32,000 bases of DNA from Mycolicibacterium smegmatis (GTDB lineage: Bacteria; Actinomycetota; Actinomycetes; Mycobacteriales; Mycobacteriaceae). The DNA is taken from NCBI RefSeq assembly GCF_001457595.1, contig NZ_LN831039.1, forward strand, positions 4,980,001-5,012,000, written 5' to 3'. Made by a program: the position numbers and the translations under genes. Below, in pieces: positions 1,929 through 6,318 of the stretch (its first letter is position 1; the number at the start of each line of letters is the position of its first letter). The notes below the pieces were generated by a model, which saw only the letters and a list, made by a program, of their open reading frames with translations, was not told the origin of the DNA and searched no databases.

Positions 1929-2240
1929 ATGACGGCAGAACCAGTACCCACCGCGGAGCCCGGCGGGAAGGTGACCATCCTGTTCGAGCGTGAGCGGGTG
2001 TCGGTTCCGCGCAGGCCGAACGAGACGCTGCTGGAGAGCGCCCGACGGGCGGGCATGACACCTCCGTTCTCATGCGAGGCGGGTAACTGCGGCACGTGCA
2101 TGGCCAAACTCCTCGAGGGCACCGCCACGATGCGCGTCAACGACGCCCTCGACGACGACGAGGTCGCCGAGGGTTACGTGCTGACGTGCCAGGCGGTTCC
2201 GGACTGCGACACCGTGACGGTCTCCTACGACGACGACTGA
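1929..2240 (+). CDS. plant-type [2Fe-2S] ferredoxin
   Basis: Cys pattern CEAGNCGTC...LTCQA (C-x4-C-x2-C...C). ATG at 1929 is preceded by GGGGAG. The ORF-track start at 1827 would lie inside the promoter region. Confidence 0.85.
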   Translation: MTAEPVPTAEPGGKVTILFERERVSVPRRPNETLLESARRAGMTPPFSCEAGNCGTCMAKLLEGTATMRVNDALDDDEVAEGYVLTCQAVPDCDTVTVSYDDD

Positions 2241-3304
2241 GAACGAGCCTGCGCCTGCCCGCCCGCATACTCGTCGAACGCCGGCGGCGGGCGATAATCC
2301 GGTTGGTACCCGGCGATGCGGATCGAACTGCCCACCAGACGGAAATCGCCTGCGGTGACGAGCGCCTCGGGTGTCTCCGAAAGCGCTTCGGGCAGTGTGC
2401 GCACCGCGGCGACCGGGATGCCCAGCGGTTTGAGCCGTTTCTCCCAACTCGCGGCCGAGTCGGTCGCCAGTGTCGCAGTCACCACATGCAGCACCTCGTC
2501 ACGGCGCGCCGCGCGTTCGGCCATGGTCTCGAACCCCGAAATGCCGGCCTCGCCGGCGAACGACCTCCAGAACCCGTCGTGCGTGATGAACAGCGCCAGG
2601 TATCCGTCCGCCGTCGGAAACAGCTGCGCCGGAACGTAATAGGAATGCGCGCCGTTGGGGTGGCGGCGCGGTTCGGCACCGTCGTTGAGATACGCCGACG
2701 CGCGGTAGTTCAACTGCGACAGCATGACATCGCGCAGCGACACATCCACCTGCCCTCCGCGCCCGGACACGATCATCGCCAGCAGACCCAGCGCCGCGGT
2801 GAGACCCGTCGAGTTGTCCGCCGACGAATACCCCGGCAGCGTGGGCGGACCATCCGGGTCCCCCGTCATCGCCGCGACCCCCGTCGCGGCCTGGATCACG
2901 TAGTCGAACGCGGGATCGTCACCGCCGTCGAGCCCGAACCCCGTCATCGCGACGCACACGATCTCGGGGTTGAACTCCTTGAGCGCGTCGTAGGTCAGAC
3001 CGAGGCGGCGGATCACCGAAGGCTTCATGTTCACCAGCAGTGCGTGTGAATCCGCCACCAGCTCAGCGAGTCTCGCCTTCCCATTTGCCGACGCGAGGTC
3101 CAAGCACAGGCTGCGCTTGCCGCGGTTGAGGCTCGCGAAGTAACTGTCCCCCACCTGGCGCGAGATCTCGCCGCCCGGCGGTTCGATCTTGATCACCTCG
3201 GCGCCGAGATCCGCGAGCATCATGGTGGCGTACGGGCCCGCGAGCATCACGCCGACCTCGATGACGCGGATACCGGCCAGCGGAGCGCTCGCGCAAGCGC
3301 TCAT
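2225..3304 (-). CDS. family III CoA-transferase (CaiB/BaiF/Frc-like)
   Basis: N-terminus GIRVIEVGVMLAGPYATMMLADLGAEVIKIEPPGG is typical of family III CoA-transferases. The ATG (3304) overlaps the upstream gene's TGA as ATGA. Confidence 0.88.
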   Translation of the reverse strand: MSACASAPLAGIRVIEVGVMLAGPYATMMLADLGAEVIKIEPPGGEISRQVGDSYFASLNRGKRSLCLDLASANGKARLAELVADSHALLVNMKPSVIRRLGLTYDALKEFNPEIVCVAMTGFGLDGGDDPAFDYVIQAATGVAAMTGDPDGPPTLPGYSSADNSTGLTAALGLLAMIVSGRGGQVDVSLRDVMLSQLNYRASAYLNDGAEPRRHPNGAHSYYVPAQLFPTADGYLALFITHDGFWRSFAGEAGISGFETMAERAARRDEVLHVVTATLATDSAASWEKRLKPLGIPVAAVRTLPEALSETPEALVTAGDFRLVGSSIRIAGYQPDYRPPPAFDEYAGGQAQARSQSSS

Positions 3305-4257
3305 CGCACCGCCTTGGCGAGTTCGGCGATCACCTCACGCGTGCGGTACTTCGAGGCGATCAACTCGTCACGGTTGTCGCCGATGGGCAGCAGCCGCACC
3401 GACAGATCCGTCACGCCCGCATCGGCGAACCGCTTGAACCGGGCCAGGATCGCGTCCTCGTCACCGGCCGCGCACAGATCACCGACATTGCGCGCGTCAC
3501 CGCGGTCCAGCAGGCGCTGGTAATTGGGCGACGTCTCGGCCTCGGCCAGGATCCGGTTGGCCCGCTCCTTGGCGGTGTCGATCTCGGAGTTGGCGCACAG
3601 GCACACCGGGATTCCGGCCACGATCCGAGGAGCGGGCCTTCCCGCGTTGTCGGCGGCCTTGTTGATGCGCGGCGCGATGTGGTCACCGATCGCGCGTTCG
3701 TCGGCCATCCAGAGCACCGTGCCGTCGGCGAGTTCGCCTGCGATCTGCAGCATCACCGGACCGAGCGCGGCGACCAGCACGGGCAGGGGTGTCTCGGCGG
3801 CCAGCGCGGTGGGGTTGTGCACCGTGAACGTGTCGTTCTCGACGTCGACGGGTCCCGGCCCGGCCAGGGAAGCGTTGAGCACCTCGAGGTAGTCGCGTGT
3901 GTAGGCGGCGGGCTTGTCGTAGGGCAGACCCAGCATGTCGCGGATGATCCAGTGATGCGACGGGCCCACCCCGAGCGCCAACCGACCCTCGGCGATCGCG
4001 TGCACCGAGAGCGCCTGGCGCGCAAGGGCTACCGGATGCTGTGCCTGCAGCGGCACGACGGCCGTGCCGAGTTCGATGGTCGAGGTGTGCGCGGCCATCA
4101 GCGCGACCATGGACAGGCAGTCGAAATCGTCGGGCACCTGCGGCATCCACGCGCTGTCCAGGCCCGCGGCCTCGGCCCACTGGATGTCGGCCGCGAGCTT
4201 GTTGACCTTGCGTGTCATGTCGCCGCGTTCGGCCCCGATCATCACGCCCAGTCTCAT
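3301..4257 (-). CDS. luciferase-like monooxygenase (LLM) class oxidoreductase, probably F420-dependent
   Basis: 318 aa, MRLGVMIGAERGD...GLDSAWMPQV...LGTAVVPLQAQHPVALARQAL, an LLM TIM-barrel pattern common in mycobacterial F420-dependent LLMs. ATGA overlaps at both ends (4254-4257, 3301-3304). F420 usage is inferred, not shown. Confidence 0.8.
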   Translation of the reverse strand: MRLGVMIGAERGDMTRKVNKLAADIQWAEAAGLDSAWMPQVPDDFDCLSMVALMAAHTSTIELGTAVVPLQAQHPVALARQALSVHAIAEGRLALGVGPSHHWIIRDMLGLPYDKPAAYTRDYLEVLNASLAGPGPVDVENDTFTVHNPTALAAETPLPVLVAALGPVMLQIAGELADGTVLWMADERAIGDHIAPRINKAADNAGRPAPRIVAGIPVCLCANSEIDTAKERANRILAEAETSPNYQRLLDRGDARNVGDLCAAGDEDAILARFKRFADAGVTDLSVRLLPIGDNRDELIASKYRTREVIAELAKAVR

Positions 4258-4652: not shown

Positions 4653-4721
4653 CAGAATCCTCGCTTCTTCGCGCAAGCGCTCATCAGAATCCTCGCTTCT
4701 TCGCGCAAGCGCTCATCAGAA
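4650..4721. repeat. perfect 32-bp tandem duplication (2.25 copies) between the mutase subunit genes
   Basis: catcagaatcctcgcttcttcgcgcaagcgct at 4650-4681 and 4682-4713 with 0 mismatches, then catcagaa again at 4714-4721. Confidence 0.97.
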
Positions 4722-6305
4722 CACCACCGGTTGCTGGAACTCGCCCCACACCGCCTTGAGCGCCGACACCATCTCCCCCACCGTGCAGTAGGCGTTGGCG
4801 CAGTCGATCAGCTTGTGCATCAGATTGTCATCTCCCTCGGCGGCCGCGGACAGCGCCGCCAGCGTGGCCTTCACCTGTGCGGAATCGCGTTCGGCCTTGA
4901 CCTTCGACAGTCGTTTGAGTTGCAGGTCGCGGCCCTCGGCGTCGAGTTCGTAGGTCGCGATCTCCGGCGGCGGCTCGTCGACGACGAACCTGTTGACGCC
5001 CACCACGGGCCGCTCGCCCGACTCGATCTCCTGGTGCAGCTTGTAGGCCTCGTCGGCGATCAGCCCCTGCAGGTAACCGTCCTCGATGCAGGCCACCATG
5101 CCGCCATGAGCTTCCAGATCGCTCATGATCTCGACGATCTTGGCCTCGGTGGCGTCGGTGAGTGCTTCGACGAAGTACGACCCGCCGAGCGGATCGGCGA
5201 CCTTGGCGACTCCGGTTTCGTAGGCCAGGATCTGCTGCGTGCGCAGCGCGAGCGTCGCCGATTCCTCGCTGGGCAGCGCGAACGGTTCGTCCCAGGCCGC
5301 GGTGAACATCGACTGCACACCGCCGAGCACCGACGCGAGCGCCTCGTACGCCACGCGCACCAGGTTGTTCTGTGCCTGCGGCGCATACAGCGACGCCCCA
5401 CCGGATACGCAGCCGAACCGGAACATCGACGCCTTGTCGGTGGTGGCGCCGTAACGTTCCCGCACTATCGTGGCCCAGCGGCGCCGTCCGGCACGGTATT
5501 TGGCGATCTCCTCGAAGAAGTCGCCGTGTGTGTAGAAGAAGAACGAGATCTGCGGCGCGAACTTGTCGATGGTCATGCGTCCGCGTTCGATGACCGTGTC
5601 GCAGTACGTCACCCCGTCGGCGAGCGTGAACGCCATCTCCTGAACCGCGTTGGCGCCTGCGTCGCGGAAGTGCGCGCCCGCCACCGAGATCGCGTTGAAC
5701 TTGGGCACCTCGGCCGCGCAGAACTCGATGGTGTCGGCGATGAGCCGCAGTGACGGTTCCGGCGGCCAGATCCAGGTGCCGCGCGACGCGTACTCCTTGA
5801 GGATGTCGTTCTGGATGGTGCCGGTGAGCTTCTCGCGCGGCACGCCCTTCTTCTCGGCGGCCGCGACGTAGAACGCCAGCAGGATCGCGGCGGTGCCGTT
5901 GATCGTGAAACTCGTGCTGATCGCCTCCAGCGGTATCCCGTCGAACAGGATCTCGGCGTCGGCAAGGGTGTCGACGGCCACGCCGACACGGCCGACCTCC
6001 TCGCCGTACTCGTCATCATCGGAGTCGTACCCGCACTGCGTGGGCAGGTCCAGCGCGACCGAAAGCCCGGTGCCGCCCTGGTCGAGCAGGTAACGGTACC
6101 GGCGGTTGGACTCCTCGGCCGTGCCGAAACCCGAGTACTGCCGAAACGTCCAGGTCTTGCCGCGGTACCCGGACGCGAAGTTTCCGCGCGTGAACGGGTA
6201 GGTCCCCGGCGGCGGCGGTTCGCCGCTGCGGTCCTGGGGTCCGTACACCGGTGCCAGCGGAATACCGGAGGGGGTCTCCACCCGAGGTTGGGCTTGCTCG
6301 CTCAT
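4716..6305 (-). CDS. B12-dependent acyl-CoA mutase large (substrate-binding) subunit, methylmalonyl-CoA mutase family
   Basis: FTRGNFASGYRGKTWTFRQYSGFGTAEESN...GLSVALDLPTQCGYDSDD...GTIQNDILKEYASRGTWIWPP is the MCM-family TIM-barrel domain. Start is ATG 6305 or the in-frame GTG 6308. The ORF-track start at 6377 would run through the promoter-like element. Confidence 0.92.
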   Translation of the reverse strand: MSEQAQPRVETPSGIPLAPVYGPQDRSGEPPPPGTYPFTRGNFASGYRGKTWTFRQYSGFGTAEESNRRYRYLLDQGGTGLSVALDLPTQCGYDSDDDEYGEEVGRVGVAVDTLADAEILFDGIPLEAISTSFTINGTAAILLAFYVAAAEKKGVPREKLTGTIQNDILKEYASRGTWIWPPEPSLRLIADTIEFCAAEVPKFNAISVAGAHFRDAGANAVQEMAFTLADGVTYCDTVIERGRMTIDKFAPQISFFFYTHGDFFEEIAKYRAGRRRWATIVRERYGATTDKASMFRFGCVSGGASLYAPQAQNNLVRVAYEALASVLGGVQSMFTAAWDEPFALPSEESATLALRTQQILAYETGVAKVADPLGGSYFVEALTDATEAKIVEIMSDLEAHGGMVACIEDGYLQGLIADEAYKLHQEIESGERPVVGVNRFVVDEPPPEIATYELDAEGRDLQLKRLSKVKAERDSAQVKATLAALSAAAEGDDNLMHKLIDCANAYCTVGEMVSALKAVWGEFQQPVVF

Positions 6306-6318
6306 CACTCGATAACGT

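Follow-up and report, generated by a model that had tools for sequence, protein, structure and literature searches.

An adenosylcobalamin-dependent acyl-CoA mutase subfamily in a conserved actinobacterial gene island, probably for substituted dicarboxylates

The subject of this study is a 32,000-nucleotide stretch of Mycolicibacterium smegmatis DNA (NZ_LN831039.1, positions 4,980,001 to 5,012,000; G+C 66-72%), hereafter the window. An initial annotation of the window, made from its letters alone, had singled out a chain of minus-strand genes for a B12-dependent acyl-CoA mutase, an oxidoreductase of the luciferase-like monooxygenase (LLM) class and a family III CoA-transferase. Our analysis of these genes and of related loci makes it probable that the mutase represents a discrete adenosylcobalamin (AdoCbl)-dependent subfamily in a conserved catabolic island for a substituted dicarboxylate. 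The chain comprises the following features.

4716..6305, minus strand: mutL, large subunit of the AdoCbl acyl-CoA mutase, 529 aa (PF01642, TIGR00641)
4650..4721, minus strand: MIRU (mycobacterial interspersed repetitive unit)-like intercistronic repeat with two 10-codon mini-ORFs (TRF)
4254..4652, minus strand: mutS, small subunit of the mutase, 132 aa (PF02310, TIGR00640)
3301..4257, minus strand: LLM-class oxidoreductase, 318 aa (TIGR03564, PF00296)
2225..3304, minus strand: family III CoA-transferase, 359 aa (PF02515)

Examination of the junctions bore out every coordinate that had been given for the stop/start overlaps from the mutase to the CoA-transferase. The mutL stop codon (TGA, 4718-4716) shares a base with the ATG at 4716-4714 (TGATG, 4718-4714). 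It is followed by two open reading frames (ORFs) of 10 codons (MSACAKKRGF and a stop), each shifted by -1, and the TGA of the second (4654-4652) overlaps the mutS ATG at 4652-4650 (TGATG, 4654-4650). The mutS/LLM and LLM/CoA-transferase joints are ATGA sequences at 4257-4254 and 3304-3301, respectively. The start of mutL was assigned to ATG 6305. An upstream ATG at 6377 was rejected because it would place a conserved non-coding 28-mer within the ORF, and GTG 6308 because that codon is not kept in other genera; an exact-sequence lookup of the mutL sequence begun at GTG 6308 returned no record. A scan of positions 300-7600, in which the promoter-like 28-mer scores under the -10 threshold, found neither terminator-like sites nor sigma-70 consensus promoters, and the four genes make up one operon-like chain. 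Since -4 (NTGA) and -1 (TGATG) are the most frequent spacings of co-oriented prokaryotic genes (PMC12548453), the stop/start chain represents normal operon architecture.

The related loci used for comparison come from 80 species-level GTDB genomes, mostly Mycolicibacterium with one Rhodococcus and one Nocardia. In these, the start codon lies -20 to +3 nt from the upstream stop at 60/79 mutL-mutS, 47/72 mutS-LLM and 45/71 LLM-CoA-transferase junctions, while 25-35% of the orthologous junctions have spacers or inserted repeats of 12-115 nt. The gene order is conserved and the tight overlap is not, so the idea of a hard-wired translational coupling is not sustained. Some of the inserts are palindromic elements of about 60-110 nt (GCCGAG...CTCGGC type), unrelated to the 32-bp repeat of the window, that part genes overlapping in the window. 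They were seen at mutS-LLM junctions (85-110 nt; locus L008 at 11953-12064, L009 at 3832-3919, L011, L029, L044, L051, L062 and L063) and at LLM-CoA-transferase junctions (L002, L006, L019, L022 and L024).

Family assignments of the two mutase subunits were obtained with profile models. MutL matches PF01642 along profile positions 1-512 of 512 (E=2.6e-196) and scores 650.8 bits against the 303.8-bit cutoff of TIGR00641. It falls under the cutoff of the methylmalonyl-CoA mutase (MCM) equivalog model NF006944 (569.6 vs 876 bits), a shortfall partly due to the split subunit architecture, and IcmF-type models gave low scores on the window mutase. MutS matches PF02310 (E=2.6e-25) and TIGR00640 (144 bits, cutoff 57), and the DGHDRG previously reported in it reads directly from the sequence as LDGHDRG, the DxHxxG base-off/His-on motif. 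The nearest solved structures are HcmA (4r3u) and then human MCM for mutL, and 2yxb and HcmB (4r3u_C) for mutS. The mutL orthologue is MSMEG_4881, which PMC10066036 names as a gene for methylmalonyl-CoA mutase, and the counterpart of mutS is MSMEG_4880.

Alignment of mutL to 1REQ with phmmer places its RQY and YASRGT motifs at Tyr89 and Arg207 (P. shermanii numbering here and below), confirming that the carboxylate-binding pair is kept. Gln197, His244 and Glu370 are kept as well, giving the mutL signature Y89 Q197 R207 A243 H244 G328 V330 F364 A366. Nine replacements set the family apart, M78G, F117L, M205A, Y243A, R283Q, H328G, Q330V, H364F and N366A. They stand at sites where the P. shermanii, human and M. 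tuberculosis MCMs and HcmA all agree, and each was found in 115-120 of the 120 sequences, those at 78, 205, 243, 328, 330, 364 and 366 in 119-120. Members are 85-93% identical across actinobacterial orders and 44-49% identical to the solved MCMs and HcmA. A Burkholderiales clade that is 54% identical to mutL (Diaphorobacter, Comamonas, Variovorax, Hydrogenophaga and Rhodoferax, plus Cupriavidus necator H16) has A243, G328, V330, F364, G78, L117, G208 and W210 in 120/120 sequences. The mutase of a Streptomyces canus plasmid, 50% identical, has MCM-type residues and no CoA-transferase neighbour; tblastn against plasmids gave no match named Ecm or IaaG.

To place this signature, 1.84 billion proteins clustered at 50% identity were drawn on, and the residues of the 150 nearest representatives were surveyed. 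The canonical combination YRYHHQHN occurs in 32 of the 150 and the Phe/Gln isobutyryl type in about 10, and the window's YRAHGVFA is represented by one full-length cluster plus fragments. Because many of the Tyr/Arg representatives vary at exactly 243, 328, 330, 364 and 366, these behave, as judged by alignment, as specificity positions. Several Tyr/Arg representatives have other residues at 328, 330 and 366, none of them a named enzyme. From MCM structures and from their placement next to His244 and Glu370 we take the five positions to be pocket residues, and the changed residues may therefore line the substrate pocket. By sequence, the window mutase falls into a compact subfamily apart from MCM proper, and the replacement of positions otherwise invariant in bona fide MCMs strengthens the view that it is no ordinary MCM.

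An alternative reading of the same residues is that the enzyme is a second, ordinary MCM, converting methylmalonyl-CoA to succinyl-CoA, with propionyl-CoA supplied by the adjacent beta-oxidation genes; the CoA-transferase would take this succinyl-CoA as donor for activating the acid of the pathway, in a methylmalonate/succinate cycle resembling that of sbm. The retention of Tyr89, Gln197, Arg207 and His244 agrees with this, as do the database names, which are all 'methylmalonyl-CoA mutase (family protein)'. However, four of the eight canonical YRYHHQHN positions are changed invariantly across two phyla, and the NF006944 score lies under its equivalog cutoff. M. smegmatis, moreover, already has mutAB-meaB elsewhere in its genome. 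We regard an ordinary MCM as unlikely, and return below to the neighbouring genes that bear on it. A mutase of the isobutyryl-, 2-hydroxyisobutyryl- or pivalyl-CoA type, acting on the uncharged CoA esters of branched-chain or tertiary-carbon acids, has in its favor that HcmA is the nearest solved structure, with the same division into large and small subunits; the genera of the relatives also include what we take to be fuel-oxygenate degraders, such as M. austroafricanum (locus L047). The diagnostic residues speak otherwise: where such enzymes have Ile or Phe at position 89, the window mutase has Tyr, and it has Arg in place of Gln at 207 and Ala in place of Asp at 116 (HcmA Asp117). Nor is the HCL-type ligase/MeaH arrangement described in PMC7176365 present, and an uncharged substrate is very improbable.

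The CoA-transferase matches PF02515 (E=6.4e-85). Its best NCBIfam matches are succinate-glutarate, succinyl-CoA:mesaconate and CoA:oxalate transferases, all under cutoff; these use succinyl-CoA or succinate, a point that suits the ordinary MCM reading. Against solved chains it scores 168 bits with 10uh, 159 with YfdE, 79 with Far and 63 with MCR. A racemase or epimerase was considered, as the length of 359 aa is that of M. tuberculosis MCR, and was rejected since the protein scores far nearer the true transferases. Asp134 aligns with the (F/Y)D-motif Asp of formyl-CoA-transferase-type and YfdE chains, which we take to be the catalytic residue. The protein is 55% identical to its Diaphorobacter orthologue and 75-80% identical to the actinobacterial variants from loci that lack the LLM.

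Analysis of gene neighbourhoods demonstrated that the linkage of these genes is conserved across Actinomycetota, and does not have the lineage-restricted character that would have told against the initial annotation. The order mutL-mutS-LLM-CoA-transferase is intact in about 72 of the 80 loci, with an acyl-CoA dehydrogenase (ACAD) pair in 69-70, a crotonase in 67 and MeaB in at least 47. The same four genes occur in Streptomyces, Actinomadura, Parafrankia and Gordonia, whose loci add an FNR-Fer2 reductase, a ligase, an ACAD pair, a crotonase, a short-chain dehydrogenase/reductase (SDR) and a thiolase. The mutase chain forms the core of a catabolic island of about 17 kb that is conserved in actinobacteria and takes in, beyond the chain, the divergent SDR and ligase, a ferredoxin, a further ligase, a heteromeric ACAD, a crotonase, two more SDRs, MeaB and in some cases a thiolase. 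In Burkholderiales, each of the three loci examined (L091 7180-12053, L092 8225-13062 and L093 8222-13133, including C. necator H16 chromosome 2, AM260480.1 at about 2.08 Mb) has an IclR gene, then crotonase-mutL-mutS-CoA-transferase-MeaB, then genes for a binding protein, a 2-oxoglutarate (2OG)-Fe(II) oxygenase, an aldehyde dehydrogenase (ALDH) and an SDR. The mutase signature and the CoA-transferase thus co-occur in two phyla. The Burkholderiales combination of crotonase, mutase, CoA-transferase and MeaB mirrors the E. coli sbm-ygfDGH cluster and in this respect favors an ordinary MCM, but a propionyl-CoA carboxylase or a methylmalonyl-CoA epimerase was present in none of the clusters seen. 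One metagenome-assembled genome, MFD09212.bin.2.151 (L048 and L053), has two copies of the mutase pair, the L048 copy in an SDR-ligase context with no LLM or CoA-transferase match and the L053 copy in an LLM-less context.

The LLM oxidoreductase corresponds to MSMEG_4879. It scores 375.6 bits with TIGR03564 (F420_MSMEG_4879; cutoff 234.25) and also matches PF00296, and among solved structures it comes closest to F420-dependent Mer enzymes (E ~1e-20); use of F420 is predicted from the TIGR03564 membership and the Mer similarity. The protein is 100% identical to a Logan contig protein and 94% identical to one from M. goodii. The initial annotation had described the LLM as hard-wired to the mutase, and this does not hold, as it is absent from M. 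paraintracellulare (SDR-mutL-mutS-CoA-transferase-ACAD-crotonase-SDR-ALDH), from Blastococcus (ALDH-mutL-mutS-CoA-transferase-ligase-MeaB), from four further mutL-mutS-CoA-transferase loci and from 3/3 Burkholderiales loci. Compared with the window proteins, the mutases of M. paraintracellulare and Blastococcus show 87-91% identity and their CoA-transferases 75-80%. Aldehyde dehydrogenases seem to fill the place of the LLM where it is missing. From its absence in M. paraintracellulare, Blastococcus and the Burkholderiales loci, we regard the LLM as an actinobacterial accessory redox step and not a fixed mutase partner.

It might also be supposed that the LLM acts on the cobalamin or the mutase, for instance in an F420H2-dependent reduction or repair, and not on a carbon substrate. 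The position of its gene between the B12-binding subunit and the CoA-transferase, with ATGA overlaps on both sides, would be in keeping with such a role, as would a ferredoxin or FNR-Fer2 reductase as conserved neighbour and two gene calls, P0131 (483 aa) and P0145 (448 aa), that fuse the B12-binding subunit to the LLM. These fusions, however, stem from intergenic inserts translated in frame by read-through and are probably not functional, and the mutase subfamily does without the LLM in M. paraintracellulare, Blastococcus and Burkholderiales. We know of no precedent for an LLM with such an activity and give this explanation very little credence.

The genes on either side of the chain are given below.

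6564..7424, plus strand: SDR of the PRK08278 subfamily, 286 aa (PF00106, NF006133)
7421..8911, plus strand: acyl-CoA ligase 2, MSMEG_4883 orthologue (AMP-binding domains)
1827..2240, plus strand: 2Fe-2S ferredoxin (Fer2; PF00111, E=7e-17)
419..1798, minus strand: acyl-CoA ligase 1 (AMP-binding and AMP-binding_C)
1..441, minus strand: small subunit of a heteromeric ACAD, N-terminal 147 residues, cut by the window edge (tblastn)

The SDR (NF006133, 400 bits vs cutoff 250) starts at ATG 6564 after GAGGAGG, divergently from mutL, and is joined to ligase 2 by ATGA 7421-7424, forming a divergent operon built like the mutase chain; an SDR of the same subfamily adjoins mutL in the LLM-less M. paraintracellulare locus. 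Ligase 2 contains CGCTGCTGC twice in tandem at 7596-7613. In strain mc2155, MSMEG_4883 is an AMP ligase with three copies of CGCTGCTGC, one of which is repeatedly lost in mutants selected with quinoxaline dioxides (PMC8877263). Ligase 2 of the window represents the two-copy state of this 9-nt repeat. The ferredoxin resembles the C-terminus of PaaE and is called as 103 aa, about 1929-2240, in a near-identical strain (contig L089), with a full FNR-Fer2 reductase in its place in Streptomyces, Parafrankia, Gordonia and Actinomadura. The position of ligase 1 is conserved in 72/80 loci.

The ACAD fragment is 78% identical to residues 1-147 of the M. senegalense ACAD small subunit (tblastn), and full ACAD genes are present in L089 and L001. 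The large subunit finds its best family match, under cutoff, in the large subunit of pimeloyl-CoA dehydrogenase, a weak pointer to dicarboxylyl-CoA substrates. An IaaF-type GGG motif was sought in the large subunit and rejected, since the sequence there is MGG, which is not diagnostic. MGG in place of YEG, as found here, is also usual for steroid-type heteromeric ACADs.

The initial annotation had noted that neither a MeaB-type chaperone nor an adenosyltransferase is encoded in the window. This is correct for the window itself, in which Pfam and NCBIfam scans of the tested ORFs, and for MeaB also tblastn with two MeaB sequences, found none, but MeaB belongs to the cluster and lies just beyond the edge; it is missing from the window because the window edge cuts the cluster. 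Contig L089, 99.74% identical to window positions 4679-1, continues beyond the edge with the ACAD small and large subunits, a crotonase, two SDRs, MeaB, a KstD-like flavoprotein and an IclR regulator. Its MeaB (294 aa), which would correspond to MSMEG_4871, lies 3.9-4.8 kb past window position 1 and is 46% identical to the Burkholderiales MeaB. The flanking ligases, SDR, ferredoxin and ACAD (as a 147-residue fragment) were likewise correctly listed, while the MHS transporter is not a conserved part; it, a P450 and an APH-like kinase are not conserved neighbours in the related loci.

Read by eye against the rat ECHS1 motif, the crotonases of two clusters (L001 17774-18538 and L092 8225-9004) are without the first of the catalytic Glu residues known from enoyl-CoA hydratases, and in the Burkholderiales protein both seem to be missing. 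The cluster crotonases may accordingly be decarboxylases or isomerases rather than hydratases. After MeaB, L089 encodes a 546-aa KstD-like flavoprotein (the length of MSMEG_4870) and the IclR regulator at 9501-11379. The range MSMEG_4864-4873 presumably holds the MeaB, the two SDRs and the KstD-like gene of the cluster. One RNA-seq study lists this range as a cluster induced by cholesterol (PMC4881515). MSMEG_4870 was not induced in microarray data (PMC5270728), and the supplements contain nothing on MSMEG_4875-4883; the cholesterol link is a weak lead. A literature search on MSMEG_4874-4887 found nothing functional and no function assigned to the cluster. The remainder of the window, from 15.4 to 32 kb, contains housekeeping genes (ahpC/D-like, RNase PH, Ham1 family, glutamate racemase, CysM/CysO/Mec-like and NAPRTase), among which a tRNA gene lies at 21152-21235 on the minus strand (RF00005, 55.3 bits).

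Upstream of mutL, two copies of an AT-rich element were located in the divergent intergenic region.

6319..6346, minus strand: AT-rich 28-mer GGTATTGGCATTCTCATTTTTGGCAAGT (direct-repeat family D2)
6466..6493, minus strand: second copy, 93% identical, 147 nt farther upstream

The 28-mer (GGTATTGGCATTCTCATTTTTTGCAAGT) stands at -41 to -14 of mutL in 73/80 loci. Its sequence hardly changes in Streptomyces, Actinomadura, Gordonia, Rhodococcus and Nocardia (for example at about 9959-9987 in L081, L082 and L088, at 9946 in L071 and at 9951 in L079), which with Mycolicibacterium makes six genera from several actinobacterial orders. It is duplicated in Mycolicibacterium, and is missing from the LLM-less loci and Parafrankia. 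It reads as a -35 TTGGCA, a 17-nt spacer and a -10 TACGTT (TAnnnT across loci), and ends 9 nt before the mutL ATG. The element is probably a promoter and, because its AT-rich spacer is invariant, one with an overlapping operator; this placement would give a near-leaderless mutL mRNA. A sigma-54 site was rejected by reasoning on GG-GC spacing and phylogeny. No cobalamin riboswitch or other known RNA was found upstream at Rfam gathering thresholds, the tRNA being the sole match in the window.

The two mini-ORFs between mutL and mutS constitute a perfect 32-bp tandem repeat of 2.2 copies (TRF, Tandem Repeats Finder: 100% matches, score 144), in which ATG and TGA overlap the adjoining stop and start codons. 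The window contains its 16-mer ATGAGCGCTTGCGCGA three times, where 0.04 occurrences would be expected; the third copy opens the CoA-transferase gene, whose first 16 nt are the same as the start of the mini-ORF repeat. A 19-mer of the repeat has 53 further occurrences across the 80 related genomes, with 53/55 matches on the gene strand, in 1-5 tandem copies at mutL-mutS, LLM-CoA-transferase, ligase-ACAD and ACAD-crotonase junctions, and its ATG always overlaps the preceding stop codon. Repeats of 32-35 bp of this kind (ATGAGCGCTTGCGCGAAGA...) are found in many Mycolicibacterium species with copy numbers that differ between strains (L010 3186-3268, L017 12992-13090, L058 12960-13090 and 18136-18290, L032 12953-13050). 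L010, a metagenome-assembled genome, contains three or more copies of a unit identical to that of the window, and in the near-identical strain a short-read contig ends within the repeat, which is thus a variable-number locus that breaks short-read assemblies. A hairpin function was rejected (RNA fold z-score -1.07, not significant), and the 13-mer core had no match in the paper texts searched.

The MIRUs of M. tuberculosis measure about 50-80 bp. The repeat is like MIRUs in being an operon-junction repeat with a mini-ORF that overlaps the flanking stop and start, in its tandem and variable copies and in its orientation dependence (PMC12548453). It differs in its unit of 32-35 bp and in using -1 (TGATG) as well as -4 spacing. 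We call it MIRU-like on the basis of this design.

Taken together, the operon probably degrades a branched dicarboxylic acid, and the most likely mutase substrate, from the residues and gene content, would be a substituted succinyl- or malonyl-CoA. Under this proposal, upstream oxygenases would be lineage-specific, and a side-chain carbon would be oxidised to the level of a substituted dicarboxylate by the SDR together with the LLM or an ALDH. The LLM would be an F420-dependent redox step, most simply alcohol or aldehyde to carboxylate, with ALDHs serving instead in the LLM-less variants. The CoA-transferase would load CoA onto the substituted C4-type dicarboxylate, or move it from one carboxyl to the other. 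The mutase, which the MeaB of the cluster itself would load and protect, would then interconvert substituted succinyl-CoA and substituted malonyl-CoA by a 1,2-shift of the thioester carbon, with the free carboxylate held by Tyr89 and Arg207 and with smaller residues at 243, 328, 330 and 366 making room for the extra substituent. ACAD, crotonase, SDR and thiolase gene products would finally dehydrogenate and/or decarboxylate and shorten the product. The best CoA-transferase and ACAD matches are hints of a dicarboxylate substrate.

Several observations weigh against this interpretation. The substrate class is one that we infer, and the sequence does not name the substrate. Retention of Tyr89, Arg207, His244 and Gln197 is equally expected of an ordinary MCM, and a contact of residues 243, 328, 330, 364 and 366 with the substrate or the adenosyl group is proposed from MCM structures and from their placement beside His244 and Glu370. 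The family matches of the CoA-transferase and the ACAD all lie far under the curated cutoffs. Several lineages do without the LLM, whose cofactor is predicted from family membership. The actinobacterial and Burkholderiales crotonases are 29% identical, the LLM-less cluster of the metagenome-assembled genome L053 has no CoA-transferase, and no epimerase or carboxylase was found in the cluster.

A biosynthetic role, in which the mutase would supply the synthesis of a secondary metabolite or lipid with an alkylsuccinyl or alkylmalonyl unit, has a precedent in ActD/MatB of actinonin and matlystatin biosynthesis, which are of the same split subclass resembling 2-hydroxyisobutyryl-CoA mutase (HCM) and are proposed to act on hexylmalonyl-CoA (PMC5719088). 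Against it, crotonyl-CoA carboxylase/reductase (CCR), epimerase, nonribosomal peptide synthetase and polyketide synthase genes were present in no context seen, the neighbours are ligases, ACADs, crotonase, SDRs, thiolase, transporters and ALDHs, and the cluster is found in many genera and is very highly conserved. This role is accordingly held to be highly unlikely, and degradation of a substituted dicarboxylate remains the preferred interpretation.

A bolder extension of it, which we put forward tentatively and hold to be somewhat less than probable, is that the A243/G328/V330/F364 mutases define a new substrate class (for example alkyl-, dimethyl- or aryl-substituted malonyl- or succinyl-CoA). 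They might then serve an undescribed aerobic route that takes off a branch or rearranges a substituted dicarboxylate, which in actinobacteria would be the first with an F420 step wired to a B12 mutase. To our knowledge, a mere handful of acyl-CoA mutase specificities exists (methylmalonyl-, ethylmalonyl-, isobutyryl-, 2-hydroxyisobutyryl-, pivalyl-, benzylmalonyl- and hexylmalonyl-CoA), and each new one has opened a pathway. If true, the route would operate in the model organisms M. smegmatis mc2155 and C. necator H16, and the F420-B12 link would give a physiological role to one orphan mycobacterial F420 LLM family. Because the subfamily has a clear signature, a fixed partner CoA-transferase and MeaB, a wide distribution in soil actinobacteria and Burkholderiales, and genetically tractable hosts, the question of its substrate is directly testable.

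Comparison with characterised mutases emphasizes the separate standing of this subfamily. ActD/MatB-MatQ resemble the window mutase as actinomycete split HCM-subclass enzymes with a proposed alkylmalonyl-CoA substrate, but have a biosynthetic context with CCR and epimerase and no CoA-transferase described (PMC5719088); this comparison was made by description. Isobutyryl-CoA mutase and IcmF have Phe89/Gln207 where the window mutase has Tyr/Arg. Canonical MCMs (P. shermanii MutB, human MUT and M. tuberculosis MutB) share Tyr89, Gln197, Arg207, His244, Glu370, DxHxxG and MeaB, but are 44-45% identical, are not split as the window mutase is, differ from it by Y243A, H328G, Q330V, H364F and N366A, and define an equivalog whose cutoff it does not reach. 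HcmAB (4r3u) is the best solved-structure match (E=9e-152, ~49% identity) and likewise has separate subunits and a MeaB-type partner. HcmA Ile90 and Asp117, however, correspond to Tyr and Ala here, and HcmA keeps Y243, H328, Q330, H364 and N366, whereas the window mutase is replaced at all five.

At the level of gene clusters, the E. coli operon sbm(scpA)-ygfD(argK)-ygfG(scpB)-ygfH(scpC) comprises a mutase, a MeaB-type GTPase, a crotonase-fold enzyme and a CoA-transferase in an ATP-independent CoA cycle. Its gene content equals that of the Burkholderiales relatives; Sbm, though, is a fused canonical MCM, ScpC is not of family III, and LLM, ACAD and ligase are lacking, while the mutase here has an altered pocket signature. 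The iaa operon, too, couples a mutase (IaaGH) with a CoA-transferase (IaaL) and IaaF (PMC8360864). Like the present cluster, it groups a split AdoCbl mutase acting on substituted succinyl/malonyl-CoA with a family III CoA-transferase (intra-/intermolecular), an ACAD, a CoA ligase and beta-oxidation genes (PMC8360864), and our proposed mechanism follows its pathway logic by analogy, as it does that of the E. coli sbm-ygfDGH cycle. It differs in being anaerobic and proteobacterial, with no F420 LLM or ferredoxin mentioned in the text consulted (PMC8360864), and the ACAD here is heteromeric; the comparison is with the published description rather than with the IaaG and IaaL sequences. The initial annotation knew of no characterised pathway tying an AdoCbl mutase to an LLM oxidoreductase and a CoA-transferase. 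As these two precedents show, operons of mutase and CoA-transferase are already known, and what differs in the window is its signature subfamily and the actinobacterial addition of the LLM.

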